Positions 1 through 22,320 of a stretch of 22,320 bases of DNA are shown in pieces. The position numbers and the translations under genes are program-made. Source of the stretch: Barthelona sp. PAP020 (taxonomy: Eukaryota); contig JARQWU010000019.1 of assembly GCA_040182905.1 (NCBI GenBank), forward strand, positions 62,001-84,320. The letters run 5' to 3'. Position 1 is the stretch's first letter. Each line of letters begins with the position of its first letter. Below the pieces are notes generated by a model. That model saw only the letters and a program-made list of their open reading frames with translations, was not told where the DNA came from and did not search any database.

Positions 1-3000
1 AGAAGGTTCCGAAATAGTTGATAAATCATCCTTTTTAAATACAATTTCTCGACAAGTGGAAATGAATCCATAATTAATGAAAGAATGTATTTTAATTTCT
101 GGTCTATAAGCAAATGAACTACAATCAAAATAGATATTTCCTTTGTTTAAAAAGATACTTTTTGTTTCACTCAAAATATTTCGATAAATGTACATATCTC
201 CATAATTATAAAAAACTCCATCGTAAAGTTCCCATCTAGAATCAATATACATAATACCACTATTATTTAAATAAGCAGTAGGTCCAAATTCTACCATAAA
301 ATATTTGTTATGATTGGGATAATCATCTTGTAGTATATAGATCAAATTTTTATTAAATAAACGTACATTTTCGTGGAAATTTACCGGAGACTTTTTAAAA
401 GTCAAGATTCCATAATTGACTATGGCTAAATTATTGTGAAAACTAGAACTATCAACAACTAAAACATCAAGAAAATGTAATTCATCAGATCCATAAAATT
501 CAGTTCCATAAAACGTTACATTATACATATAAACGGGTAAACCAGTATCAAAATAAATATTTGAGTCAGATAACTCCAATTGAGTGCTATTAATGGAATT
601 GTGCAAATCAATATAATGAATAGTGGATGTTTTGACTATGGATTCCATACAATCGATACTAACATTGTCAAAATATACCACAGAGTTTACTATATACATC
701 TTATCCACAGTTATATTAGCAGTATTATTAAATACGATTCTACTGTTCTTAATCGTTAAAACAGAACAACCTGTAAAATTTCCATAAAAATCACCAGTAA
801 AACCATCCAATGCAAAAGTGCCTTCACATGCATTAATGCTGGTTTCATTTGCAAACGTCAAAGCTTTATTGATAGGAGTCACACTAACTGTCTCACCAGA
901 ATATTTGTTAACAATGTCACTTGACATAGCAATAATGTGCAAGAAAGAATCAATCGATTTGATGAAGAAATCTCCTTCATGATATCCACCTTCTCCAAAA
1001 ATAACTCTACCATCAACAATGTTCCAAACACTATGTATGTTTCTTGTATCAACAATGGATCTAAACGTTACTGCTGCACTATCATAGATACCAACATAAT
1101 TGAAATTTGTAAATTTATCGCCAACCATTAATGAACTCCCACTTATCTTAAATATACCAATATTCTCAAAATTATCAAACAATATAAATCTCTCTTGATC
1201 TCTGTGTTCTTCAAAAGTCATGATATCAAAACTATATTCATTTAAACTGTAACTGCCTAAATTCAAATGACAATATGCTCTCAAATTACCATAATTCAAA
1301 AGAGAAGAATTCTCTCCAGTCTGTGATAAGATAAAATTAGTTTCAAAGGATACTGTACCCAAAGGCATGTTGATAAATTTGGCATCATTTTCAATATTCA
1401 AGACTGCCCATGGCATTGAATCCAAAGTAACGTAAGATTTTTGTTCAACAAATTTCAACAAACCATAGTTAGTAATAACAGAGGAATATCCAAGATAAAA
1501 GTCAGAAATTTTAAAAACAGTTGATTCTCCGAACAAATTCATCCTGACATTGTCAAGAAATCCACCACCATACCATTGAAAGATAGAACTGACATTAATG
1601 ACATCATGCCCATCTCTAAAACTACTGTACATAATCATTTGATCAATAACAACATCATGAGAAGTATTGAATGTAATATTTGAATGTCTTATATCAAAAA
1701 TAGAAACATTTGCCAGAGTACAGTTATTGTCAAAAATCAATTTCAAATTGGTAACAAAAATGTCACTAATATTAATAAAAGATGGTTCTGAAAAACTCAT
1801 ATTACTCAAAGTACCAACTAAACTGTCAGAGATAGTCAAATTACCTTCACAAAATAAATCAATGTACCCTCTGAAAGGATACAATATAACAACAGGTTTC
1901 TCTAATTCAGGTATCACCATTGAACCATCTTTTATCCAAATGAAACCATGTTTTGTTATTGAAAAATGATGTAATCCTAACACATCCATCCTGGGGAGAT
2001 AATCATCTCCAACAATCAGATCCCCTTTGTGAATAATTAAAGTACCATCAATATCAGCACCATCAAATATAGTAACATCGCCGGTCTCCACTGACAGAAC
2101 AGATCCTTCAAAAGTTTGAAGAATAACACTGAATGTAGAAATTGAAGCTGGTGATAACACATTTATTGTTCCATTATTTTGAAAATATGATCTAATAGGC
2201 TGTTGATTGTAATAATACTTATAGACTAACACATTGTCTTGGTATGTTGAATATGACCTTAACGAAATTGTTTCCGGGGTAGCTTTCAAATTTCCAGTAC
2301 AATTCATCAAACCGTTGTTAATGAAATACCCTCCTCTGTAAAAATCAATAGAACCAACATCATGATAATCAATGAAACCCTCATTGATAAATTTTCCATA
2401 ATAGTTGATGCTGTGTTTACCAAATCCTGATATTTCTGCTTTTTTCATGTTAACTACATTAGTATATTTTTGACTGATAGTTCCTTGAGTCCAAATCAAT
2501 TGTTCATCAATTTCTAAACGATAATCCTTTGATCCTCGAATTTCACCACCATAAAACCATACATAATCAAAAGAAATGATAGGCATTCCAGCAACATGGA
2601 AAAATCCTGCTTTCAACAAAAGTTCTTTTGGCTTTAATTCATTTTTCATCAAATACAAATATATACCACCACCTAACAATTCCAATTTATCAAAATATCC
2701 TTCAGAATCAGTTTGGAAACTCAAAAATCCAGCAGGAATCTTTAAAATTGACATGTTGAAATAACTATCTTTTTGCATATATATATATGGTCCACCAGAA
2801 TATCCAATATTGTACCAGCAGAAATAATAAAAAGTTTGGTATACATACTTTCTCAAAGTATTTGAATATACACGTCGATTCACAGAACACATACGAGGTT
2901 GTTTGGGTGATTCACGTTTCCAATCTAACTTGGGTAAATTGTCAAAGGGACCTTTCAGTTCATCAGCAACAGATATATTTCCATACATTTTACAATTTGC

Positions 3001-6000
3001 ATGATAGCAGGCTTTTTGTTGCCATGTGCCATTATTATAAAGGATTAAACTACTATTCACTGCCATTGATAAACCTCCCTTTGGGTTAAACGTACCTTTA
3101 ACATGAATGGTGTTGTCTTTAAGAATGTTGATAGAACGATCAAAAATGAAAAAATTTGCCTTATAATCAACAACTAAATCAGCTCTTAAATCAAACACTA
3201 ACTCTTGCTTACTAATTGCATAGGTTAAATACCCAAATGTCGAAGAGTCATCACTTGATGGATTGGGAATAATCCACTCTTTCTTTGCTGTCTCCCAGAA
3301 TTCAAAATGACACATTGGTTTATGTATACTCAACATCAAAGGATCAGGTGGATTATTTGAGCACCAAGTACTTCCACTCTTACATCCCAATTCCCAATGT
3401 CCAAATTCGTCAGCATAAATCACATTCCCATCTTTGTACATTGTTGATTTAGTTGTCATACTTCCAAATATTATAGCACTTGATCCTTGCCAAATTATTG
3501 TATTCGATGCATTACATGCATAAATAGTGAAAGAATCATGCACAGACAAAGTGCCATTCAAAATCAATGTATGTCCAGAACCCATTATATGTTCCTCTGT
3601 ACCATTAAACTTTGATTTACCTGTGACAGTTGTTTTGGAAGGTCCAAGAAAACCTCCTGCTTCCCAGATTAATTGTTGAACAACAACATTATCGGTACCA
3701 TCTCTCCAACCACCTTTAAGATTAAGCCTAGCAAAAGACAATTCAGAACCTGTATCAAAGATAACATATCCACCTTCAATAATTATCTCATCATACTGAA
3801 CACTTTGGGAAATTTTGTTAAATGAAGTAACACCACCAGTAACTTTCAAAGTTTCCATAATCATGACGTCATCAAATTCATCAAAATAAATACGTCCAGT
3901 CAAAGCAGTTTCAGCTGATTTGACAAACCATTCACTTCCACTTGAAGACTTTACTTGTTTGAGATAGATTGCACCAGCGGAACAATATAGGGAATTGATA
4001 GATATTGTACAACCATAAAAATATAAGTTAGAATCCACAGTTTGTTCAATGTATTCTCCCATATCATACGTACCATAGATATAAACAGATGTATTTTTAA
4101 AATATGATAATAGACCAAAACCCGAAAGTGTACCATCTGTTGAAAGAGTAAAAAAACCATCTTCAGGAATTACTACCCTTGAATTGTATCCCATAAAAAC
4201 AGTTGAAGAAATATTGGAGTCATTCTTCACATAAAGATTACAATACGAATTAATGTTCACATGAGAACCAACATAATAAATTGTTTCTGGCATTTCAAAA
4301 TCGCAATAGGGATTAAACGTACCATACAAATGGAAAAACAATGGATAATCGTTTGACGTGAAAGGAACAAAATGAATTGCAGGTTGATTTGTAATATTAA
4401 CTGTACCAGCAGCTTGAATGGTAAAGTTTTCAAGGCTTATAAGATTATTTCCTGAAAAAATGCCATTTGAAATAACTTGAAAATTGGATAAATATTTTGT
4501 GTAATTATCTCCAGCAATATAGATATCATTGACCAAGAAATTATCCAAAGTACCTTTATACATTTCTAAAATATCAATGTGAAGTTGATCTTCATTTGTT
4601 ATAACGCCACAATCCAATTTGAGATAAGAAATTCTAACGTGTTTTAAGTAATAATCCGAATAATCACTGGTTTTTCCATAATAAGAAGCAAGGAAATTCA
4701 TTTGTGTCTTCTCAGTTAACCATAACTGATAGATATGTAAATAATACAGAACATCAACATCATGTTCCATATTCATCCAAAATTTGAATACACCACCATC
4801 TGTAAAATGCAACAATTCATCAGGCTTTGTGATAACTCGATAAGATCGTCTAAATTGATGATAGAAATGATAGCAATTCTCATTACTTTGATGATTACTC
4901 AATACAATATCATTTGAAGGATTATAATACCATATACTAGAATCAGTATTGGGTGTACATTTGAGAATAGGATCATATTGTTCAGATGCATTGTACATCG
5001 ACTCATAACCTAATATTACACTACCACCTTGAATATCAATCTCTTGAATATTATGAGTGCCATAATACATACTGAATAATCCTTTGTTTCTAACAATAAT
5101 CTTTTCAGGATAAAAATGTCCTCTTATTTGTACTCTATTCAATGAAAATGGATTAATATTGTGATTTTGAAAGATAAAGGTTGATTTTGAAGGATAAATT
5201 ACAGCATCATTATAAGTTTGAAGATAATGACCATCAAATGTAACAACTGAACCTTCGGATGTATTGAAGACATTATTACCATAGAAATATACTGTAGAAT
5301 TAAAAGTTGTATCTCCTTTCAAGATAATAAACTCAGAACGATCATAAAAATTTAAACATATGTTCCAAAAGAATCCATCATACGCAATCAACTTTGAATA
5401 TTGTTTAAATCCGAAATTTAATCTGTAAGATGTGGTAATGATATTCTGATACAGATGAAGAATGCTTGAATCATTAAAAACAATGTTGAATATGAAATCA
5501 TCATCGTTAACATTCCATTCATTACTGATGTTCATATAGTGTTGTACGTTGACCGAAACATCATTTATTTTATAAAATGATGAACCTCCTGTAATATTGA
5601 AATTATCAACAGTCAATATTGAGTGATGTTGTTGAGTACTTCCTGAATTTCCCAGAATACCACTTTGCCACACAAAATTGGTGATTTCAATGATAGCTTT
5701 GGAACACGAAAAATTACCCTCTCTGAAATCAAAATGATCAACTTTCAATGAAGAAGAAATAACAGTTATTGAATTGTTCCAGAGTTCAATTTTAGAAAAA
5801 TTCATTAAATTTTCAACAAATGAAAAGATATATAAACCATATTCTGTGTTTAGTTCATTCAAAATCACTGTATTTGCTGTTTTAATATTTAAAACGCCAA
5901 GAATTTGATGATCTCTCAAATAAATAATATCTCCTTTTTCAATCAACAATTTGTTAATCATACCATGATCAATAAAGACAGTGGAATAGTTATAAATATG

Positions 6001-9000
6001 TATCTGCTTATTTGCTGCAGCAGAATTCCAAGAATTTACTGTCAAACTTAAATTATTAAAAGAAACATTCCCCAATGAATTATCAAAATATTCATCAATA
6101 AACAAACTACTTCCATTCATATCAATGATTCCCTCATTAATATTTTGCAATTTACCAAACTCAAGTTTAATATCCTCAATCTCAAGTTTACCTTCACTTG
6201 TAGCATCAATAATTCTATTAATTTCATTCAAACTTCCCAAATTTTTCAATTTTAATGTACCTTTATTGATTAATTGATAATTTGTAAAATTTTTAGCAAT
6301 AATATCCAAAGAACTATAACTACTTGTAATATTGATAACATCAATTTCAAAAATACAATCAGATACAAAGGATAAATGACTTTCACCTTGTAAATATATA
6401 CTTTGCATTTTGAAAGTAGGACATAACGAAGCAAAATGAACATCACCAGTATACATTTCAATCGCTTTGAAAGCATAAGTAGCAGATTCTCTGAATATAA
6501 TACCTGCTTGAGGATTATCATAATAGAACAATGATACGTTATAGAATCCGTACACATCCAAAGCTAAATTTGTGAATTTGATTGGAATACCTGTTATTGT
6601 TCCATCTATTTCAATAAAAATTGTATGTGGGGAAGTGTTTGGATCCTTCAAAAATCCAGTTTCTTCAATATATAATGTACCATGAAGATCCAAGTCTCGA
6701 AGAGTATAAGCAGTTGCAAATAACCTCAAAATTCCTCCATTTTTGATATCACCCAAAACAAATTTCAAATATCCTTCTTTAAACAAGGTAACATATCCTT
6801 GATTTTCGACAATCAAAGATTGAACAGTTGAAATCTCTCCAAAAACATTCAAATCACCAAAAACCGTCAATTTTGAAAAAGACTCAATGGTTGCATTTTG
6901 ATTGATATTTAACACTGAGCCTTCATATAAAACTGAATTTCTAAGAACAGATTTTAATACAGAATTCGTTTCCATATTCCACTCCCCATAATTTACAATT
7001 ATTAATGGTGGCTCAAAAACAGTATTAGGTAATTGTTTCACAACCCCATAATTGTGTATCTCATAAGCAATATTCCCTCCATGCAGCTCTTTTGTTGAGT
7101 TTAAAATTATTGTACCACGATTGATAATGACTGTTTGATATGAATCACCATAATAATGGTGACTCATGGCCAATTGCTCAAATCCCATTGTATTATTGTT
7201 AACAATATAATGTCTGGCTGCAACGTTCCAATATGAATCATTTTTTAGTGGCACAAACTTATCAAATTCTAAATATGACTGATGAATAGCTTCAAAATCC
7301 CCAAATTGAATTTCCTTACTTATCAAACGAGCATAATCAGCAACAAATTTTGTTGAAGCATATATATTATCAACAAATGCTGTTTTTGTCAAGGATTCTA
7401 TCAAAGAACCAGTAGAAGGACCTCTGATCGATACTGTAGGAGCTATTAAATACTCCAATTGAACATTTGTGGATGAAAAAATATTAGCACTTGAAAAAGA
7501 AGTGATATTAAATATTTGAACTTGCAAACAATTATTACAAGACAAAGTGACATCAGTTGCTGTTGCAAAATCAAATTCTGAATGGGCATTTGAACCATCA
7601 ACATTAATAACCAATGAATTCTCCATTACTATATTCATTCCAAAAGATCCTTTGTTAACAATCTTACAACTACCACCCTTTAATATTAAATCTGATGATG
7701 TTGCCAAAAATTCTCCAGTGGAATATACTGTTATGGTTCCTGAATTACAATAAAAATCATCTAGAATGTATAAGGATCCATAGATAATAATGGAACCACT
7801 CATAGCAAAAGTTTTATGAAAATAAACTTTAGCTGATGGTTCAATAAGAAGATTAGGAGAAAATGAACTCATTGCAACGTCAGATCTTAATCTCATAACT
7901 CCTTTGATATCAAAAATAAATTGATTAGCTAATGAAACAAAGAAACCATCAGTAAAGTCCCCTTCTAAAGTTGCCTCAGGATTAATGGTAAACGTACCAT
8001 ATTCACCTAAATATTCACCTTGATCAAAAGAACAACTATGATTACAGACAAAATTACCTTGTAAAATTTTTTGCCAATCAGTTAACATTTTAACACAATC
8101 AAATTCAAAAAGTTTTGACGGTGAATAAATCTTTCCAGAAGAAAATTCAAACAATGAAATATGCTGTGAACTAAAAGTTGAAATTAATGTACTAAAACCA
8201 TATTGCTCAATTTTATTAGAAATAATTGTGTTGATACTTAATTGAGATGTTCCTGAGATCAAGTGTATTGAAGTAATATTCATGGAATTTGCTTGAACAA
8301 CAGCATTCTTTGATGAACTAGATAAATCAACGCCATTAAAAGAATTGATTCTTAACCAATTCAATTTACCGTACCATTTCATATTTGTTGAACATTGAAT
8401 TATATCATAATCACATACATAAACAATATCATTAGACATTTCAATAGACCATTCTTTAAAAAATAACTGTCCATTCATTGAATTATTCTGATTAGTTAAA
8501 CATGAATATTCAGAAGCATTTTGAAAACCAGAAAGTTGAATAAATCCCACACTTTGAATTTTATTTCCAACAATCATTTTAGGTACAAATAACTTCAAAC
8601 TATTGTTAGAATGAACAAAATTATTGCCAACTTGAAATAAAATGGGTGAATCAATGTATGTTTCAGAATCAATGTGATTCAGATCATTATCAATAATAAT
8701 TGATGATGTAAACATATTAAAGTTTGAATTTTTGATATCCAGATTGGCTTTTATGTGAATAGAATCAACCACTTTAAAAAGAACATTTGTATCAATAATT
8801 GAAATGCCTTTTGATATTATATCAAGTGATAACGATTTGAATATGATAGAATTATCCAAAGTCAATTGATTTTCAATGATAAATTGCTTTGTTGTAAAAT
8901 CACCATTTCCCTCAAATTGCACATCAGAACGGTTCAAATATATACCCTCAATTATTGAACCAATATCATGAATAGAATAAAAGGAAGAATCTTCAACAAC

Positions 9001-12000
9001 TAATTTTTGTCCAACAAAAAGATTCTTAGGTAATATAGACACAGTAGAATGATTGGTAACAATAAAATTCCCTTTGGTTTCAAAGCAAGAGATGTTAACC
9101 ATGTCAATAATTGAATTATCAAGAATAAAATCTTGGTATATTGTCAAATTCCTAAGAACATTTACAGTTGATGCTGAAACAATGACAGATTTCCAAATAA
9201 TGTTTTGTACATACAAATGAATATCAATGTCATTGAAGATTATTTGAGAAGATTGAGATGCTTCAAACAAATTTAAATCAAAGATGCCATTTCTCATATC
9301 AAAATAAGTTTTTGAAATATTTAAAGTTTTTAAACCAATTAATGTATTATTATGGAATTTTAAATATTTTAAATCTGGTCTAAAACTGTTTGTTTGAATA
9401 TTTTCAACAATCAATTTTGAATCCATAAAATATGAGTTTTTATGATACTCTTGATCAACTAATAAACAATTTCTTCCTGCTAGATCAGAATTAAAGACAT
9501 AAATATAAGTATTTTCTATGATTATATCCTTAAATTCATAACCTATCTCAAATTGATGAGATTCATCATTTCTACAATCAATCAACTTCAAATATGAAGA
9601 TTGACTTGTATAAATATCATTCAATCTGTGTTTTGTATTAAACATTTGCAAATTGGAATTGATTAGTCTTAATTTCTCAAACAAATAGAAATTCGAATCC
9701 TTTATTGACATCCACCCACCAGAAATAATTGTAATTGATGTGACATTATTCATATTTACGTTTGTTAACTCAACATGACTCTTTACAATATAAAGATTTT
9801 TTAAATCATTGAATGTCCCTTTATTTAAAATGAATTGACTATTCTCACATTCAAAAGAAGATAAGCTTGCAGAATTGAATTCACTTATATTCCAAGTATC
9901 TGTAAAAATAGTCATCCTTTCAAATGAACTTCCACATTGTATGATAGACACTGTTCCAATAACATTGTTCGTTGACCATTCAATCAGTCCATCAAAAATA
10001 ATTCTTTCAACAACAACATTACCATCAGTCAAATTAATTGACTGCAATGACGTTGATTGTAAATACACACAATTCCAATCAGTATTGAAAGATTCAAAAC
10101 TAACTAGATAATTGGAACTGATACCGGTATTGGATAAACTAAAACTACTATCATTAGCTTTGAATATTTCTAATTTTGGCATAACTAATGTAGAAACAAT
10201 GAATAAAGAATCAATAGATGTGAAATTTCTTAAAATGTCAAATTTCATTTGAGAAACTTTAAAAGTAGCATCAACAGATGTAAAAGCAATGATAGACATC
10301 GAAGAAATTTCGTCTCCAGTCAAAACACCCCTTTCAATGGTCAAATTTGATAAATGATGCAAAATAAAAGTATCAAAACTCCAATCAGTGAGATCACTAG
10401 TAATTGATATCAATTCTGGAAACGTAACATTAAGAGCATTGAAAGTTTTTGAAAACAAATCAAGATTTTTCAAATTCTTAAAAATACTGTCATAAAGGTT
10501 CAATTGATAATTTGTCTCACCACCTGCGCTCAAAGAAATCAAACCATTCATTTGGGTATACTTTTCAATGGTTGCAAAAGAATTTAATATTTTCAAAGAT
10601 TCAAGAGCATTCCACTTTGAATCTTGAATAAACAAAAAAGAATGTTCTTCAATAATCATCGAAGTCGCATTGCTATTGCAATTTTCAAACGTAATGGACG
10701 AATGATCACCAAAAGAAACATCTTTCAAATTAGTTGTAGAAGATTCACATTTGAAATGTGATGATGATGCTGTATTTATTGTTGAAATGTTAGAAACAGA
10801 GTTTATCAAGAAAAATTGAGAATTGACAACATTTAAAGTGCTAATGTTGGTAAATGAACTCTCAATTTTTGCAGGAACAATCAGATAAAGAGATATAGTT
10901 TCAACATATAAATGACAGTTGGAAATAGTCATAATTGCAAGTCTTCTCAAATTCATATAATTACAAGAAAAATTTTGAACATTAGATAATCGAAGATCAA
11001 CGTTTTCGTAATTCAAACCATCTTTATAAACACTAGGTGCATAGAATGTTCCACCATTTATTGTGAAATCTCCAGAATGAGTTAAATAAACATCGGTACT
11101 GATTTCAACAACAGAATCTTTTGAATAAAAAGTTTGAAAACGATCACCAGCTTTCAAATATCCACTGGATCTGAAAATTGAATTTTCCAAGGAAATGGTA
11201 ACCGCAGTCACCCAATTGTTTGTTTTATCAAGTGTTATATTTCCACATGAATAAAAATTCAAGGAATTAACATTTTCTACAGAAGGATTATTGAAAAAAA
11301 CGTGGTCATTGCCATCATGTACAGACAAAACCAAATTATTCATGTTAATCTTTTGAAAATCAACGCTGGGTGAAAATATGGTACCATCACAATGGTCACT
11401 ATCAAAATCATTGATTAATACTGAATTTGCAACAAACACAAATGAGCTATGTCTGTTAAAACCAATATGTGAAATATTGAACCTTGAAACAACAAAATCT
11501 TTCAAAGGTGCATTAAGAACCCAATATAGTCCATAAGATTCAACGGATCTGAAAGTAAAATTAGAACAAGAATTGCATTGCCAATTTAAAGATGTAATTT
11601 CATCTGATTCGCCACTAGTTTTCCTTGCTTTGATATCTAGAGTGTGAAAATCTGCTCCTTCATATATATTCCATGTAGTAGATACTTGTGTGGACCCGCA
11701 AAGCTCATTTGCTTCATTTTCCACATACAATTTTCCATACACATTCAAAAAATACCCACTAATCTTACATACAGTCACATTAGCATTAGCACCGACTGTT
11801 AAACGTGAAGATGATGATGTCGAAGAAATAATCAAGTTTTTTGCTGAAACAATGATTCCTCCGAAATTGATTGCCTTGTAGCCAATAATTGTCTTCAAAA
11901 TTTCTTCTTCTTCCATGGATAAAGAACCATCAAAGTTCATATTAGAATAGAGGAACATAACACTGTTTGTTGATATTACTTCATAATCAGAAATAAAGTT

Positions 12001-15000
12001 GGAGAAAATGATAGTTTCACTTTCATTGGAAGGTTCAAAAGTCTTGGACTTTTTGAGTACAGAATTTCCAACCAAAGTAATTGAACCTGACATTCTATGG
12101 TTCTCTGAATCATACGGCATTTCATAAAAGTAACCAAATATATCAATATTTCCATTCAAAGTGAATATTTGTTGATTACTTATGAATGAAAAACGAGTTT
12201 GAATAAGCGCTACATCACAGTACCACACATTTTGTGAAACTAACTGAACAACATTAATTAAATAAGCCTTTCCTGTTGGATTAATATAACTTTCAAAACG
12301 TACATTCTTTAGAACTAATTCTTCAGTAACATTTATCTGAACGTTATCACATAATAACAATACATCATACCATGCTCTTTGCATTGAAGAATGAATGGAA
12401 CGTTCATCATTGAGATACAACTTTTCAAAATTGATTTGATGAGAAACTCCCAATAACTTGAATTGAGGTATTGATGATGAATAGAAATCATCTGCTTGAA
12501 CTACAACAAAGCCTAAATGCAAATCAGTCAAAGGGGTTTGAACTATAAAAGTAGACTGGTCCGTTACAAACAGATACTCAAAATAGGGACTAATTTGTGA
12601 ATTGGAAAAACGTGAATATGAATTGGCTTTGGCTTCAAAACTTTGAAAATATTGTTTTGCAGAATTACTGATTCTTAGATTACCATTGTCCAAATTCTCA
12701 TAACTTTCAAATGTGGTCGGATTCAAAACATTGGAGAAATACACAGCACCACGTGATACAACATGATTGATCAACCAATAATCATCTAATCCAGGTGCAG
12801 AATTTTCAAACCAAAGAATACCTCCATATTTCACAGAAATGTTATCAATGGTCAAATTTCCCACACCAATGATACTTACTTTACTTGTTGACGATAATGC
12901 AGTGGAATAATCAATATATAATGAGTGAATATACAAACTTTCCAAATCATTGAATTCTGCTTGACCATTCCTCACAACAACATCAATAATTTCGACATCA
13001 GCAACAATGGCAGGGTGAAAACGAATTTCACCATCTAATAATACAGTAAGATCATTGATTATCCATTTATCAACATTGGGCGTCTCATCAAAAATAATTT
13101 TTCCTTTTGAAACACTAATAGAATGAAAGTCATATATACATCCGGGTAACATATGCAAGATTCCTCCATCAATAATAACAATGGAGCCGATTTCCCAACT
13201 TCCAGCGAATCGTAAATAACCACCATCGGCAACAAAAACCGAAGAACCAAAACCTATTAATTTGACATCATAATTGATGACTGTTGGACCATTGAAAATA
13301 ATAGATGAAGCTGCTTCACCATTTGATGTGTTTGAAAGCAGAATATCTTCAAAAAAACACATTTCAGAGGGAAAAGTAATTGAAGAACCGGGTTTAATAA
13401 TCAAACTTCCTAACAAGAATAATCTGAAATCAATAGTGATAATAGAGTCAACAATTAAATCCCCGGATATTTTTAATGAAGGTAAAACGTCAACAGAAGC
13501 ATCACCATATGTAACTGCATATGTTATTGTCTGTGAATCTTCAGCACCATCTGCAAATGCAGCTCGCACAGAACCCACACCGACAAATCGAATTCTGGAT
13601 TGAAATAAAGTTGTTCCCAACTCTATTCTGACATAGTCACCAACTTCAAATAAAGAATCATATCCGACAAAAGAATAATTTCCTTTGAAAAGAATTTCAA
13701 CGCCGGTACCAACTTTGTGAGTTTGAGCTGCATTCATAAACAAATAATCCCCAATGACATTTAAAATAACATAAGAATCAATGGTACCACCTAAAAATGT
13801 GGCACTATTAGAAATATTAAAGAAACAAGGTCCATCAAGATAGCCAGAAACCATTGTAAAATTAACAATGTCAATAAAATCAATATTTAGATAAGCCTGT
13901 GAATCGCTCAAATAAAATTCCCCTGCACTAATCTGATTAAAATCCTGAATTGTCAAACTAGATTGATCTTCTGCTCTAAACAGGTTCAGTTCCAACTTAT
14001 CAGCTAACAACAAATGTTTACAATCTATGATGGTCAAATTGGACTGACTAAGCGAAATACCATTTAAAACCATGTTACAGTGTTGAAAAATAAACTCAGT
14101 ACGGTGTAAATGAACCTTATCTACAACTTTAATTGTACCTTGAAACAAAATGTAAGTATAATCATTTGACCAAACCATACCTGTATCTGCAGTTGATTCA
14201 AAATATGTATGTAAACCAAATTCATAATGAGTGTTCAAAAGTTTCAACCCAGATAACTCACCATACATCATGATAATACCATCAAAGTACGCATTTGGAT
14301 GAACAGTCCAATATGAGTTATTTAAATATATTTCTGAAGTTGATGTAATGACAGGCTTCAAAAACAAGTGAAAATTACTGTTGTACATTTTCCAAATACC
14401 CTTTTGAGTAAAAGTAGAATGAACTAAATCGGTCGAAACAAGAGTTAAATCACCATGGGTCTCAACAGTTGCATTTTCAGCAACTGTAATATACCATCTG
14501 GGACCATCCATTGAATATGTAGATGGAATAAACCAATACTTATTGATTAAAAACGTTATAGAGTGACTAAAATGAACGTTGGTATCAATAGAGAAAAAAT
14601 CAAAATTAAAAGAAGCACTGCATCCAGATTCTGTTACATATATTGAGCCCATTTCTGAATTTCTTAACTTTGCATATTCTGCATTTGTATGACAACCCGT
14701 ATAAAATTTAGAGTTGTTGAAAAACAAAAACTTGGTTGTGAAAACGTTAGCTCTTTGATAAAAACTAATTTCATCAAACAAAACAATTCCAGGCATCTCT
14801 AATGTAGATCCTTTTACCAATAAACTTCCCTGAAGAAATTCAGTCACATCAAGTGTTGTTGCTTGATCGAACGAATAATTACTGAAAATATCTTCCAAAT
14901 CATAAGTATTTGTTCTATCCATGCTGATGGTGGCAGTTTGTGATCTAGAATCAATTACCCAATCAGTGTTATATGATAATTTTAAATTTAAAAGGAAATC

Positions 15001-18000
15001 TTTATAAAGCAACAGATCAATTGCACTATTTAACACAGTAGCAATCGAACCCAACTTTAAATCTTTGATTTCAAAATCAAAATCAACAACATCATAATTA
15101 GAACCATAAAATATCAATGAATTTGCTTGAATGTCAACTTTACTCTCAACAACGTTTACCAAATCCTCAAAAGTTATTAGAGAACTATCATAGATTAAAG
15201 TTGTTCGTAAAGCACGAATAAAAATCTTCGACTGTAATAAGTCAGCTAATCCTTCAGCAATAAACTGATTCGCTATTGTCTCAATTGATACGTTGACAAA
15301 TGATTTGGCTTTAAAGTTAAAAGAGTCTGTTGAGACATTTGCAATCAACTTCAAATTCTCCACAATGGCATTGGAAGAACCCATTTCTGGAATATTCCCC
15401 ATAATATTTGCATAAATATTTTTTAGATTATTGAAAGTTACTATTGCAGAAGAACCCCCATGTAAAACAATGTCTGAATCAAAAAGGTACCCTGAAACAA
15501 TCTTATATGAACCACTGATAATGCTCCTAAATTTACAATTACGAATATCAATGCTATTCAAAGACATGTCAATACCGTTTGTGAATTCAAAGTCAACACC
15601 CCAAAAATCCTTCAAATTATTGATTGAAACTGTTTCAACATCTGCAATAGTAACATTCCCATTCTTGTAATATTTAAGAGTCCAAATATCAAAAAAGTCA
15701 ATAAAATGCAAATTAAAATTGGTTTCTGTGATCAAATTAGATTGATACAAATAAAGCGTGTCAATTTCAGTAATATTTACATTACTGTTTGAAACTGTTG
15801 TTGAAATGAACTGAAGATCAGTGGAATTTGTAACATTCATAATGTTATTAGAAAACGTTTCTGCCTTAAACAATTGAACATTAGAATTTTGAAGAATGAT
15901 GGAACAACTGTCTATTTTTGTGAATTGCTCAAAAGAATTTGTGACTGACGATTCAAATAAAATGTCGGAAAATGACCATGTGCTAGATTTGGTTTGGAAA
16001 AGTGTGGCAATATTTCTAACTTTAATATCACTGTCATTCAGTTCATTAATCTCCAATGTTCCTTCGTTGTAAAATTTTATTTCAATTTCTATGTCATTCC
16101 AGTTATTACCTTTCAGTAAAGAGACTTCAAGACCATTTGAAATGAAAAATTGGCTGGAGATTGCATCTACTTTTTCATTCAACACCCTACTGGTGACTTG
16201 AAAATTATTGACTTGATCCGCGTTCATCGCAACATTGTTGAAATTGGAAATTTTGAAGAAAAAATTTTCAATTACAAGACATTCAAAAGATGTAAATTTT
16301 GTATGGGATGCATAAAGATTGACAGAATTAACTGTGTTCAATTGAATATACGCAACATGTTCAATGGATTCCTGAACAACCAAATCAAATAAATTGAAAT
16401 CTGAACAACTGATTGAACCAGAAGCTAAAACATTACTATTCAATGAAAACTCATTGGCTAAAGTGGTGGTTGACTCATTATTTGCAGTTACATTAATTTC
16501 AACGGACAAAATGTTATCACTTTTCAAAAATCCCTTGCCAATAGTCTTATTAAATTGTAAATTAATGGTTCCTGTTGAAAGCAATTTATTTGAGTGAACA
16601 AAATCGTCAATCAATATTCCTGAAAAGTCAATAAAGGACAATGCAATTCCTAGATAATTGTAATTTTTGATAAATTTTCCATCAAAGGTATAACTATTGA
16701 TTGTATCAACTTGTAAATCAAGTAAATCAATATATTGTGCTTGAAAACCAAATGTGTTAATGGTATTAGCACTAAAATACACTGTTTTGACCACATCGAA
16801 ATCAAATTTCAAATTATTGGACATAACATTATGCAAGATTGATATATCAACTGAATTAGCAATGAATAACATAATATTTTCAGCATTATCAACATTCCAA
16901 TTAAATAATTGTATAACATTCATATTTGTTGTTATATTAACCGCATTATCATTAGTTAAAACAACACTATTAATATTTGAAATGTGAAATTGTATATTTT
17001 GAAAAATTTTGGAAAAAATATCACAATTATCACCATAGTTCATATAAATATTGCTTGAATCATAAGAACCTTTAATTTTGACCTGATTTACCTTATAAAA
17101 ATCAAGATTTGAATTAAAATGACTTGTTGAAGTCAAATAAAATGCTTCAATATGATTACCAGTGTATTTATTGTCAAAATATGCATAAACACCTTTAACT
17201 ATTGACATATTGTGAATATGATTCATAATTATTTGAGTGTTTGATAGTTGTTTTGTATCTATCACGCAATTTTCATCAATTTCATTGAGAGTATAATAAC
17301 TATTGTTGACATAACTAATTGAAGTAAAATTCACTAAATTACTGGAAGAAATGTCAAACCTAATATCAAACGTTTGAAAATCAACAATACTTACATTGAA
17401 AATATCAGATGTACTCACATTTGAATGAAATAAACTGTGTATATTAACATCCAAAAATTCTATTACATCAACTACAATCAGATTGTTGTAATAAAAAGAA
17501 GAACTTAAATCAGTTCCATTGACAGTCACATTAGAACCATGCTTTAATTCAATTGATGAATAATAAACAGAATTTTCAAAAATTATGTTCAAAAGTTCAA
17601 AATATTCCTCAAAAATTACACCAAACATTATATTTTTTATATTATAATTGATTGAAAGTGAATTTAAACCATTAACAACACAGTGATTAGCAATATCAAC
17701 ATCAAACTCAATAAAATCAACACCTTGATGAATAAACTTCATATCATTAACAAGAGGAGCATGCATTCTATTTAAAACTCCATTATAATGTGATAACGTC
17801 CAATTATCAACTTCAGAAAGAACAGAAACATTGGAATATTGAACATCAGTTAATGCTATGGTTGTTGAAACAATTTTATCAGGACTAAATAAGTAAAATT
17901 TATCTGCATTTTGTGTTGAAATCGATAAATTAAACATTAACAAATCTAAAAAGATAAATGTACTGTTGGGATTGACCAATGATATAATTGAAGATGAAAA

Positions 18001-21000
18001 ACTTGTTTTTAAATCAAAAAGGGTGAAATTTGCTTGATTAATGGTAACATACCAGTGATCTATAGATTTCAATGTAATATTAAAATCACCAATGTTATTC
18101 ATTTGTAATTCATTGTTTACACTATTTAATTGACTGTTTATAATAGTTACGTTCCCACCAACAATCATCTTCCAATACATGTTGTCAAAACTATCAACAA
18201 AAAATGGGAAAATCTTAAAAATATTCACAAAACTAAAGTAACTATCATTAAAATAACTGTTTAAGGCATCGTCAACGAAAAATTCATCAACATTGTTCAT
18301 AACCAATTGAGTGTGTTCAAACATGCTTGAGTATAAAGTTAAAAAAGCCACTTCTTCAATATTCATCACGGTATGCTTGAAATCAATCAATTGATGAAAA
18401 GTTTCATCAGTCAATTTAACTTCAACACTATCAACAATATTCAAATTTTTAGAACAATAGGAAGTTATTCCCAGTGTTAGATATGAATCATGTTGAAAAT
18501 CAAAAACACCAGAATGACATTCAGGATGCTTCAATTCTTTAAATTCAAAATATTTGATTTCATACACACGTAGAATACCATACAAAGGTAAAATTGTCCC
18601 GAATATAGAAAATCCCTTTTGTAACACCAATTCACCCCAAATTTCAAGAGAATCAATGTCAATTTTGAAAGTTGTTGTCAAATCCAACAATATCAATGAT
18701 GTTGATGAAACATAAAACTTTTCAAAATCGTTTGCCACCCGAGATAATTCACTGAATACAAAAGTTCCTCCAAAATGTTCAAATGACCTATTTAAATCAT
18801 AGTAACCATCATATTGAATGTGTGAGTCATTATAAGCGCCTTGAATTGTTCCTAATCCATGAAATTCAGTGGTTTCTGGAATAACTAATGACCTGTAAAC
18901 ATACATATATCCTTCAAATTGAAAGATACCCTCAAATCTACAACCTGTTCCCAAGACATGAATTTGAACATCAGAACCCATGCTAAAAGTGTCAGTTTTT
19001 GAGATCATTGCAATTCTAGAACCTAAAATTAATGTTCCTTCATTCATGACGACATTATCTTCAAAAATGACCTCACCCAACAAAACATCGTTATTCAAAT
19101 CGCTCACATAAATATCTCGAAAGCATTGTTCTGTAGTTGGTATAGGAAATTCATTCGTTGATAATGTAAAATCAGTCAATGAATAAGCATGAAAATCAAA
19201 AGGTATAGATTCAACACCTAAGACAAAAGTACATACACGTCTTTCAACAATATTCTCCTCATATACAATTTCATAGCCCAAATCGTTATCAGCACCAACA
19301 ATATGCATTTCATATTCAATCACATCTTTAATTTCATCAGATACATATTTGATAGGCCACCAAGCATGTGTTAGATCAGAAAATCGATTGATGTTACTGT
19401 GAACAAATGACTGACAAGAAACAGTAGAGCAAACATCATCTTCCAACACATAAGTAGAATATTCTATTGCATTAATTAACTCATTTCCCAAACAACAAAC
19501 TCGAGGGGGAAACAAAGAATCAACAACCATATCATTGGACAAAGATAGAGCATCAAGAAAGACCAACTTTCCTTCTGGTGCAACTTTTATCTCGTTGTCA
19601 CCAAATTCAGAAGGATTGATGTGTATCTCAGCATTAGAACCAACAAACACATCACAAGATTCAGTGATGTATGAATGAGCAGATACCTCTGGTGTAAAAA
19701 ACCTTCCTTTTGCAACAACGTGATCATATCCTTTCAATAATTTAACATCACAAACATACGTGAAATCAGCTTCACTGTCCCATATACCACCATACCATTC
19801 AAATAGCTTATCAAAAACCAGAAAATCAGTAATTCGAATCAAAGGAACGTTCCAGAACCTTGCATGATGAACTAAAAGATTCATTCCTGATGCAATATCG
19901 AAATCACCTCCACCCAAGAACAACTCATGAATTTCAAATGCTTGTTCAGTATTATTCAAAATAAATGAGCCACCAGTATGATTGATATACCATGGAAAGT
20001 ACATATTGGTATCATCTCTATAAATAACTCCATATTCAAACTCTGTAGAACCACCTGATTGATTGAACTTAAATCCATCAACAGGATCAATAATTTGACA
20101 ACCAAATCTGAAGTAAATATCTCCACCTTGATGGTCATACACCTGCAAATAATTTATCACAGAATCGGAAGTAAAGTCAACAGTACCATTATATACCGAC
20201 ATTAAATATGTGTTAAAGTCAATAGATCGAATAACAACAGAACCATTGTAAACATACATATGCCCCATTTGATATATTGAGGACATTGTAGTGTACAAAA
20301 TATTCTTGTTTACCCCTTTATATTCAATGTTTGAAAGAGTGTTCAATTGATATATATCTCCATAGAAATCAACAGAATCATAAAACGTAATATTACCATA
20401 TATAAACAAGGGAAACCCCATATGTCTGAAGTAAACTTCACAAATGAAATCGCTATGGTCAGAAAAATAAATAGTACCATAATTTCGAAGGGAAGCCATA
20501 TTATCAACATCATCATTCTCAGTTTTAGGTAGGGTTAAAATGTTGAAATTGGTAAACGTTACACTGGCAGCACTGTTAATAGAAATATAAGCCCCTAAAT
20601 TCAGAAAAATATATCCATCAGAAAAAGCATTTATTCCACCAGAAATTAATAAAGTGTTAAAAGAATTCATCGATCTATCACCATTACCTTCACAAATAAT
20701 TTTGGAAACAGTAAGCGAAGCATAACCAGAGAAGTTTCCACTATTCCAATTGAAATTTTGAATCGAAAAAGACCTACCATAACTAAATACCAAAACAGGT
20801 GTGTTGATGGAATCACCTAAAGTAAATGTTCCAATATTCATTGATCGCCCGACATTTACAGTCGCATTTGTATTTATTAATATATTGTCACCATCAATGG
20901 GTACATTATTCGTATTCCAACATGACAAATCAAAAAAATCCGATTCTTCAAAACAAATAAACTCATGGTCTACTGAATATACAGCGCATATCAAAAAAGT

Positions 21001-21027: not shown

Positions 21028-21394
21028 CTAGAATTGCAAAAACCATATAGTATAAATAACTTTTTACCCAAACCAATCAGAAAATTTTTTCCAAAAAATT
21101 CAAAGAATTTATTACAAATGAATGAAAACAACAGTTTGATCGCAAAGAGTACAAATAAAAAAGTAACAGAAAAGAGAATCAAAAAAAAAAAGATCGGGTA
21201 GAAAGACGAATCATTTTTTTTGATTTTTTCCTTCTCAGCATGTTTCTGAAAATGTTTGAAAGAAGAAGTTTTTCACCATATTTATTTGATTTTCATGTTG
21301 ATTAGAAAAATTATGAAGTGCAGTTCTTTTGTTTATCAATTATTGGAATGATTTTATCACTAACATTGTAAATATTCAATTATTTTCAAAAGAA
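21028..21394. promoter_or_regulatory. Intergenic region / putative divergent promoter with CCAAT-box-like AACCAATCAG (21071-21080) and opposed poly-A (21181-21191) and poly-T (21214-21229) tracts
   Basis: Lies between the start of the minus-strand giant CDS and a plus-strand coding-like region. Rich in homopolymers. AACCAATCAG matches the NF-Y consensus. No Shine-Dalgarno-like sequence precedes ATG 21027. Confidence 0.45.
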
Positions 21395-22320
21395 ATGGAG
21401 TTTGACCAGTTTTCGAAGATGATTGTTAGTGAGGAAATTTCATTTTTAGCAAGCAAAGATTCGTATACATTTGGTCATATTTGTTTCCATATTAGCGAGA
21501 AGACGGGAATAGATAGAAACTCTTACGATATTCATGAAATTAAGAGTTTAAAGGCAAGGGACTGAAATTGGTGGGGTTTATTGTTACCTAAAGGTCAAGC
21601 ACAAGTTTAATATGATTTACAAACCATAATATGATTTATCTGGTGAACTTTGTATCAATTATTGTTGTGATGCAAAATTTTTGGGAATTGAAAAGGGACA
21701 TGCTGTTTGCCAACATTCAGTTATTGTAGAAGGAAATTTGTTGGTTTTGTTGTTGTTTTATCTAAGACCTATGGATGCCAGCAAGTTGAATTTTGAAAGA
21801 ATATTCTTTTCAATATCAATTAAATTGTATTTATTTATTGATAAAGAGTGAGTGAACAAGACTTATTTTTTGTTATTTCAGCTTCCAAGAATTTGATGCA
21901 GATTTTTCCTTGAAAGTTTTCTTTTGAATTTTTTTGTCTTCCTTTTTTATCGATTGCTTCCTTAGCGTTTACATTTCAATAGATCGAACGTGTCTGTAAA
22001 TGCTGTGGGGAAATATATCCTTTCCTTTGAATCAGTTGCAGAGAATAACTTTTTAAAGTGAAATTGAACTTCAACCACATTGACAAATATGAATCAAAAT
22101 TCTATAGCCACAATAAGAATGAAGGAGCAAAATTGTATTGTGAAGACCAACAGGATCTTATTGGTTTAACCATTGCTCTTAATGTGGAAGTTCATACTCA
22201 ATGAACGGAATTTATTTCCAAGCCAAGAAGCACTGTGCGTATGAGTGAATAAGAAAGAATAGTGTTTATTTGGTTAAAGGCTTTCGAGGCCCGATTGATC
22301 TGTTGAAAAACTTTAGATTT
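21395..22320 (+). pseudogene. Fragmented coding-like region: pseudogene or short-intron gene of unknown function, possibly continuing past the right edge
   Basis: Successive protein-like open segments occur in different frames: MEFDQFSKMIVSEEISFLASKDSYTFGHICFHISEKTGIDRNSYDIHEIKSLKARD* (21395-21565); TEIGGVYCYLKVKHKFNMIYKP*YDLSGELCINYCCDAKFLGIEKGHAVCQHSVIVEG...IDKE* (21561-21851); RLHFNRSNVSVNAVGKYILSFESVAENNFLK* (21966-22061); KVKLNFNHIDKYESKFYSHNKNEGAKLYCEDQQDLIGLTIALNVEVHTQ* (22055-22204). Two T-rich GT..AG segments (21848-21881, 21916-21965) join some of them in frame, but other breaks remain unexplained. Confidence 0.35.

Follow-up and report, generated by a model that had tools for sequence, protein, structure and literature searches.

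The window analyzed here is a stretch of 22,320 nucleotides (nt), positions 62,001 to 84,320 of the forward strand of contig JARQWU010000019.1, with a GC content of 30%. It is dominated by one giant open reading frame (ORF) on the minus strand, which runs from window position 21027 to position 1 (1..21027) through 7,009 codons, with zero stops and no intron-like break. The ORF is open at the left end of the window, so that the encoded protein comprises at least 7,009 amino acids (aa), with its C-terminus beyond the window; it is predicted to be a beta-solenoid throughout. No Pfam or NCBIfam family matches the ORF at E ≤1, and Rfam yields zero matches. Profile comparisons show by homology that an N-terminal cap and seven to nine modules of this protein are related to a 216-238-aa repeat of bacterial proteins. 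All features of the protein given below lie on the minus strand and are numbered in window positions.

Residues 1-19, at the start codon, are the most hydrophobic 19-mer in the protein (Kyte-Doolittle 2.21; runner-up 1.75), and judging from this hydrophobicity, aa 1-18 (20974..21027) are a predicted signal peptide, with the cleavage site placed by eye. The residue-similarity autocorrelation of the protein is strongest at a lag of 20 (z 8.3) and rises again at 40-41; a period of approximately 20 aa is detectable in four of the six sub-regions of the chain, as expected of stacked beta-helix rungs. The protein is rich in Ile, Phe, Asn and Tyr, whereas the bacterial modules are rich in Gly and Thr; relative to the latter, it is enriched in Tyr, Asp and His. 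Tyr and Cys account for 5.2% and 1.2% of its residues, compared to 1.1% and 0.2% in the bacterial modules and 4.0% and 1.3% in the proteins of Eukaryota sp. GEM-RC1 (see below). Among the 132 Arg codons of the ORF, CGC is never used and CGG is used once; GC at third codon positions is 0.23.

The original prediction, made from the sequence of this window alone, described a degenerate Gly/Trp motif recurring along the protein and proposed that it resembled repeats of large bacterial beta-helix proteins. A search with a module profile bears out this resemblance: profile A1, an alignment of eight window copies only, finds the metagenome protein P0002 (E 4.1e-23) as the sole match among 7,999 scored candidates. 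The matches cover each of the six 234-240-aa repeats of P0002 in the same register, and 100 shuffled versions of P0002 reach at most 2.3 bits. A1 also matches seven of 301 Acidobacteriota genomes at E ≤0.001. In the reverse direction, the highest scores on the window are 28.7 bits with a profile of P0002 alone (controls at or below 3.9), 37.1 bits with one of 38 modules (controls at or below 5.5) and 44.4 bits with one of 236 modules (controls at or below 6.9); a fourth reverse profile represents GEM-RC1. The 38-module profile places seven of the eight quoted motifs above the controls (9.8-37.1 bits vs ≤5.5), the exception being the copy at aa 411 (5.2 bits). Similarity to large bacterial proteins is thus found by profile search in both directions, and on this basis the resemblance holds as homology.

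The second element common to the bacterial relatives is an N-terminal cap motif at aa 35-72 (20812..20925). The cap profile was built from 26 of 61 homologues, in all 26 of which the cap precedes a module; with a seed pattern chosen with the window motif in view, it gives aa 35-72 a score of 18.3 bits, while the remainder of the protein does not exceed 4.6 bits and controls do not exceed 3.7. The nearest relatives are 26-34% identical in alignments of up to 88 columns. Across 34 modules, the columns conserved at 90% or more are three Gly and one Asn, with no acidic or basic residue. Single-sequence searches matched none of 4,897 candidates of 3,854-12,266 aa with the giant protein and none of 1.84 billion representatives with aa 5791-6990, and the giant protein had no match in the plasmid search; against PDB by sequence, it yielded only two chance matches. 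A pattern search of metagenome contigs gave 43 matches, none genuine. No orthologues of the window protein were recovered in these searches, and the Atlas holds no entry for the window sequence.

A wider search, with a profile (A2) from a mixed alignment of 34 modules, scored 7,988 candidates and identified 60 of them, 432-2,000 aa long, as homologues; proteins longer than 2,000 aa lay outside this search, so that giant eukaryotic members would be missed. The named matches come from Verrucomicrobiota, Acidobacteriota, Gemmataceae, Thermoflexales, Bacteroidota (Flavobacterium) and Methyloversatilis, with Nocardioides and Acidibrevibacterium among their cluster mates, and 16 of 301 Acidobacteriota genomes (approximately 5%) match at E ≤1e-8. 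The spacing of the repeats in the homologues has a median of 216 aa, and 71% of 173 gaps fall within 190-260 aa. The period of 19-20 residues per rung is common to the homologues P0002, P0003 and P0063 and the window protein. The C-terminal domains of the homologues are of the T9SS, PEP-CTERM, Hint, RTX or Ig type; among the 60, the recorded domains are the T9SS tail (four proteins), PATR (three), RTX and Hint (two each) and PEP-CTERM (one), and both plasmid matches of the family carry Calx-beta and cadherin names. The repeat thus appears to be a passenger-like domain paired with several export routes. In one Acidobacteriota locus (L001, 500-11414, plus strand), a giant gene interrupted by an assembly gap encodes a propeller-like N-terminal part together with the cap, approximately five modules and numerous Ig-like repeats at the C-terminus, and adjoins a Ser/Thr kinase-like ORF; these domains were named by eye. 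No Pfam or NCBIfam model matched the repeat family, and the Atlas places its homologues in unnamed clusters; we found no description of this repeat in the literature, supplements and subscription journals being outside that search. The family thus lacks a domain model yet spans many bacterial groups, while long beta-helix surface rods as such are already known.

Eukaryote names are attached to two of the 60 homologues, GEM-RC1 and Rotaria. Eukaryota sp. GEM-RC1, by name a skoliomonad metamonad, has a decontaminated assembly according to its genome paper (PMC11316075), in the main text of which the terms adhesin, giant and autotransporter have zero occurrences. It encodes three paralogues (GEMRC1_005187, GEMRC1_004614 and GEMRC1_003924), and the one that was searched lies on a 3.7-Mb contig. 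The GEM-RC1 protein P0063 (4,545 aa) has a hydrophobic N-terminus and 11 module matches; a Cys-rich block separates runs of modules at approximately aa 990-1290, and no C-terminal anchor is apparent. The three GEM-RC1 entries P0063, P0018 and P0064 lie on two megabase contigs and are almost identical; they are either paralogues or pieces of split gene models. The two proteins deposited under the rotifer Rotaria sp. Silwood1 (P0034 and P0065) come from a single 38.7-kb contig and resemble bacterial secreted proteins. We did not count them as eukaryotic because their modules are 27.3% identical to bacterial ones, compared to 27.4% among bacterial modules; judging from the sequences, this match may represent contamination, which we favor, or a recent transfer.

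All eight motif peptides quoted in the original prediction lie in frame within the single minus-strand ORF, anchored at aa 94, 411, 2411, 5120, 5788, 6179, 6485 and 6858. The six Trp codon coordinates, listed below with the respective copies, are exact, the two Trp-less variants are located at 13780-13860 and 439-519, and the arithmetic of the four spacings (951, 1173, 918 and 2004 nt) is correct. The first module copy (Trp aa 94, nt 20746; 20383..20901) scores 11.1-20.1 bits with four profiles from relatives. The next (Trp aa 411, nt 19795; 19615..19980) is doubtful: it is in register and scores 5.2 bits against a best control of 5.5, and the deepest, 236-module profile does not recover it. 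Three bacterial-type profiles give an isolated copy at Phe aa 2411 (13663..13932) scores of 9.4, 19.7 and 11.9 bits, and the GEM-RC1 profile gives it 5.1 bits. One or two degenerate remnants at aa 4231-4505 (7513..8337), absent from the earlier list, reach 7.0 bits with the P0002-only profile, 4.7 and 4.6 bits, below the control, with profiles of the 38-module stage, and 11.0 and 11.5 bits with later ones, in a register that varies by profile.

The remaining copies lie toward the C-terminal end of the sequence. The copy at Trp aa 5120 (nt 5668; 5470..5808) scores 10.7 and 10.1 bits and is missed by the leave-one-out and P0002-only profiles. A marginal extra copy at Met aa 5489 (nt 4561; 4315..4641) attains 7.6 bits with the deep profile, against a best control of 6.9, and 4.9 bits, below control, with the GEM-RC1 profile, and lacks pairwise similarity to the other copies. 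The best-kept copy (Trp aa 5788, nt 3664; 3463..3858) scores 28.7, 37.1 and 44.4 bits. It is followed by a copy with an inserted loop (Trp aa 6179, nt 2491; 2068..2628; 19.2 and 31.3 bits), the copy at Trp aa 6485 (nt 1573; 1282..1737; 14.9, 20.1 and 16.3 bits) and a Trp-less copy at Val aa 6858 (346..591), which scores 17.0 bits in the leave-one-out test and 6.1, 9.8 and 3.0 bits with outside profiles.

The degenerate recurring motif is thus real, with outside profiles placing seven of the eight copies above controls, but the proposed period of 300-390 aa does not extend over the full range 430-20790. It is found only across aa 5120-6858 and once at the N-terminus (317 aa); elsewhere, three quarters of the protein, the copies are off this grid. 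The C-terminal spacings are 369, 299, 391, 306 and 373 aa with the marginal copy at aa 5489 included. Only 86 of 31,825 random placements are as regular, compared to 3,784 of 101,279 when the last four copies are taken alone, and roughly the last 1,900 residues are the only stretch in which a 330-aa super-repeat holds. With the 38- and 236-module profiles, no copy rises above controls in aa 471-2366 or from aa 2455 to approximately 4230, which leaves two module-free gaps of about 1,900-2,000 aa. The interpretation of the 2004-nt spacing as two units gains from the marginal copy at the expected position (nt 4561), whose score, as given above, exceeds the control only slightly.

A module of approximately 330 aa as the ancestral unit is contradicted by the unit of the family, which is 216-238 aa. 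Nor can whole units of 300-390 aa be aligned with each other (z ≤2.9 in 15 pairs); 57-133 residues of each window unit fit the family profile. In leave-one-out tests, the held-out copies at aa 5788, 6485 and 6858 score 13.8-17.0 bits against control maxima of 11.4, 8.9 and 9.3; those at aa 94, 2411 and 6179 exceed controls by just 0.5-2.6 bits, and those at aa 411 and 5120 are not above controls. The closest pair of copies is aa 5788 and 6485 (z ~8), and the copies at aa 5120 and 5489 match none. We considered a higher-order repeat of two alternating modules, but could not establish it because only the 5788/6485 pair stands out and the spacers are unalignable. As for the self-comparison proposed in the original prediction, plain self-BLAST gives no significant signal at the motifs and reveals one clear duplication, at an offset of 298 aa, outside them.

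This internal duplication (aa 3352-3483 and 3650-3791; 9655..10974; self-BLAST E ~1e-6) is the strongest self-similarity in the protein, with a local score of 123, whereas none of 1,000 block shuffles exceeds 97. It has no third copy above controls and no counterpart in the homologues, and is unrelated to the Trp-Gly module. The Gly-poor, Asn/Ser-rich region at aa 850-2050 (window ~14900-18500) matches itself weakly at offsets of 244-344 aa (BLAST E 0.003-0.05; scores 85-96, control maximum 84) and is possibly a second solenoid type resembling leucine-rich repeats. A basic, aromatic, Cys-bearing spacer stretch at aa 6036-6085 (2773..2922) is a candidate exposed binding loop: its density of C/W/P/R/K/Y/Q/H, a residue set picked by eye, is 0.54, compared to a maximum of 0.50 in 200 shuffles.

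Upstream of the ORF, in the divergent orientation (window 21240-22320, plus strand), there are coding-like patches in shifting frames, and GT-AG intron candidates of 23-91 nt, one of which has its GTGAGT donor at 21848. In this region, a spliced gene is possible and its model is persuasive by eye, but it was rejected as proof of a eukaryote given that 39 of 60 and 15 of 60 shuffles reach it, and the four upstream frame pieces match no Pfam family above cut-off. The excess of N-glycosylation sequons in the giant protein (129 observed vs 107.5 in shuffles) was likewise dropped as a sign of a eukaryotic source because they are equally dense in the bacterial-type P0002.

AlphaFold2, applied to aa 6100-6335 with an alignment of 34 rows (the window sequence and 33 others), produced a model consisting entirely of short strands (pLDDT 83.9, pTM 0.81); confidence is low for an insertion around model residues 158-180. 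The module is accordingly predicted to be a right-handed parallel beta-helix of about eleven rungs, in which the Gly, Trp and Asn positions would be turn and core residues rather than an active site. The wide structural search returned parallel beta-helices with no standout. Adhesins head the list: the top match is tapirin 4wa0 (Z 13.8, rmsd 3.9, 185 residues aligned), followed, among others, by SRRP 5nxk (Z 12.3), Vag8 (12.1), pertactin (11.7), the FHA secretion domain (11.4) and Candida Awp3b (11.3). The beta-helix resemblance noted originally thus extends to the predicted fold of the module, which is like that of passengers and adhesins.

Taken together, these observations point to a giant secreted beta-helix rod, with a repeat shared with bacteria, that probably lacks enzymatic activity and either coats the surface of what is likely a protist or serves it as an adhesion filament. 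After export, the chain would fold rung by rung into a stiff rod. With 0.48 nm for each rung of 20 residues, the rod would measure approximately 170 nm if all 7,000 residues were continuous. The modules would be the best-conserved scaffold, and the spacers, extended in the C-terminal quarter to 300-390 aa, would contribute additional rungs as well as loops that bear aromatic residues or Cys, as suggested by the limited number of residues per unit that fit the family profile and by the stretch at aa 6036-6085. The spacer loops could supply a binding surface for glycans, substrate or prey, and any anchor would reside in the C-terminus outside the window. The least certain step is the descent of the gene from a bacterial ancestor, followed by decay under AT-rich drift and internal duplication.

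Several observations weigh against this interpretation. The bacterial seeds were initially chosen via the window profile, so that the reverse scores are not fully independent. BLAST of P0063 against the window protein is empty, and the window modules are 17.1% identical to those of GEM-RC1, 18.5% to bacterial modules and 16.7% to each other. The structural model spans 236 of 7,009 residues and depends on 31 bacterial rows; run with no alignment, AlphaFold2 gave no fold (pLDDT 32.6). Foldseek returned no match at E ≤0.001, the best TM score being 0.50, to the HMW1 secretion domain, and in the wide search enzymes tie with adhesins (lyase-like 4phb, Z 12.2; pectate lyases, Z 11-11.5). The adhesive role is suggested by fold and architecture, the unseen C-terminus, where an anchor or a catalytic domain may lie, could change the reading, and the upstream spliced model, as noted above, is no better than chance.

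Two alternatives concern the nature of the repeat. If any Gly-containing beta-helix yields such motifs, the likeness to the bacterial repeat could be convergent, in agreement with the low identity to the nearest relatives over short alignments and with the convergent interpretation of similar adhesin folds of yeast and bacteria (10.1101/2022.02.09.479577). This explanation is already largely refuted and appears highly improbable: the database-wide E-value is 4e-23, the matches keep the same register in each repeat and are colinear over most of the 230-aa module, the cap is shared as well and at the same position, and solved beta-helices give no such scores by sequence. The rod could alternatively be a multi-site polysaccharide-degrading enzyme, akin to lyase- or tailspike-like beta-helices, directed against bacterial capsules or biofilm. 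A large share of the fold matches, at Z 9-12, are lyases, tailspikes and depolymerases, and the enrichment of the window protein in Tyr, Asp and His is compatible with such a role. However, the conserved columns of the 34 modules include neither acidic nor basic residues, although sites specific to the lineage of the window protein, which only orthologues would reveal, may lie outside these columns, and no lyase or hydrolase family matches at E ≤1; with only Gly and Asn among the conserved columns, a scaffold fits better than an enzyme, and we consider an enzymatic rod unlikely.

The other two alternatives concern the host and the origin of the gene. The contig might be prokaryotic, from an AT-rich bacterium or archaeon, the protein then being a fast-evolving giant member of the family that involves no inter-domain transfer. 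The ORF is indeed intron-free over 21 kb, the homologues are overwhelmingly bacterial or unnamed, and the upstream intron model does not exceed chance. Conversely, the 1.3 kb upstream contain no 100-aa ORF on either strand, show long poly-T tracts and, by eye, no ribosome-binding site before the ATG, have sigma-70-like sites at chance level (3 vs 2.9) and include patches with ORF-like codon use in changing frames; in addition, the Tyr/Cys content resembles that of GEM-RC1 and not that of bacterial modules. On these sequence features a eukaryotic host is likely, and a prokaryotic one is a rather doubtful proposition. More credible, albeit still a minority prospect, is that the repeat is ancient and vertically inherited in eukaryotes, or has many unsampled eukaryotic members, so that the bacterial likeness reflects common ancestry. 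The three paralogues of the second eukaryote, GEM-RC1, with the searched one on a multi-megabase contig, are in line with this scenario, as is the exclusion of the longest proteins from the profile search, by which giant eukaryotic members would escape. The trees that we built from the modules do not discriminate: none of the 46 inner branches is supported in a tree of 49 rows and 88 columns (with 36 of 132 bacterial rows), nor is any in a larger tree of 149 rows, and both a single clade of window copies (p-AU 0.66) and a clade of window and GEM-RC1 modules (p-AU 0.52) are neither shown nor rejected. The module phylogeny envisaged originally thus names no donor. Against vertical inheritance stand a single credible eukaryotic lineage among the 60 matches, compared to at least seven bacterial groups, and the patchy presence in Acidobacteriota, which fits a mobile domain. 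Lateral transfer is a plausible reading, and an expansion in place may have followed. A more specific, speculative scenario, to which we assign a lower likelihood than to vertical inheritance, is that the bacterial super-repeat entered free-living, bacterivorous protists and seeded giant secreted rods (4,500 to more than 7,000 aa), whose stretched scaffold and loops rich in Cys and aromatic residues catch bacterial prey or form a fibrillar coat.

Beyond bacteria, giant proteins are made of this repeat in GEM-RC1, as at least one protist known by name, and probably in the host of the window as well. The module profile would annotate otherwise blank giant genes, and makes testable the surface display of free-living anaerobic protists and the origin of such proteins from prey. 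No new mechanism is proposed here.

Among known systems, the closest is the unnamed bacterial Trp-x-Gly-Gly repeat, with which the window protein shares reciprocal homology, a start with the cap followed by a module, the 19-20-residue period and the lack of a Pfam family. However, the bacterial copies are arranged back-to-back (~190-260 aa), whereas those of the window are degenerate and 299-391 aa or ~1,900-2,000 aa apart, so that the window protein is a variant rather than a typical member of the family. With the GEM-RC1 proteins it shares giant size, the hydrophobic N-terminus, the absence of a Pfam family, many copies of the module, raised Cys and Tyr and, in one module, an inserted segment at the corresponding loop; the GEM-RC1 modules, in contrast, are far better preserved, scoring up to 71 bits, and for the most part arranged in tandem, and the pairwise similarity to the window is limited to one weak stretch.

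The original prediction had likened the motif to a GGTL..G...TV...FTW.GG pattern of autotransporter-passenger-like or large adhesin proteins. An identity with the autotransporter repeat PATR is not borne out: PATR (PF12951) does not match the giant ORF at E ≤1 or any of the 34 aligned modules at E ≤0.1, although 3 of the 60 homologues carry PATR domains, and none of the 60 has the autotransporter outer-membrane beta-barrel (PF03797) on record. Autotransporter and two-partner secretion (TPS) exoproteins, such as pertactin, Vag8, FHA and HMW1, share with the window protein a signal peptide and a predicted beta-helix (Z 9.8-12.1, for one module), and a bacterial member of the family matches autotransporter clusters by structure (TM 0.41-0.56). 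They differ in sequence: no PATR, TPS or haemagglutinin repeat scores above threshold, and identity is 7-12%. The TPS secretion domain of FHA and HMW1 has no Pfam or NCBIfam match on aa 1-3000, and no TpsB transporter gene is present in the 1.3 kb upstream of the ORF.

The best structural matches are tapirins, the binding region of L. reuteri SRRP, and fungal Awp and Hyr/Iff-like adhesins (Z 13.8, 12.3, 11.3 and 10.9). In sequence, the similarity to tapirins is borderline (E 0.027-0.039); PF11765 (Hyphal_reg_CWP) has no match on the giant ORF and, for the GEM-RC1 homologue, is a feature-level lead only (0.86). These proteins are single short beta-helix domains, in contrast to the 7,000-residue rod. 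They are non-catalytic beta-helices, and the fungal ones provide a eukaryotic precedent (10.1101/2022.02.09.479577; PMC8746771). Elongated beta-helices are described as adhesins in both yeast and bacteria (10.1101/2022.02.09.479577), and giant bacterial proteins as likely adhesion devices (10.1101/2023.11.21.568195).

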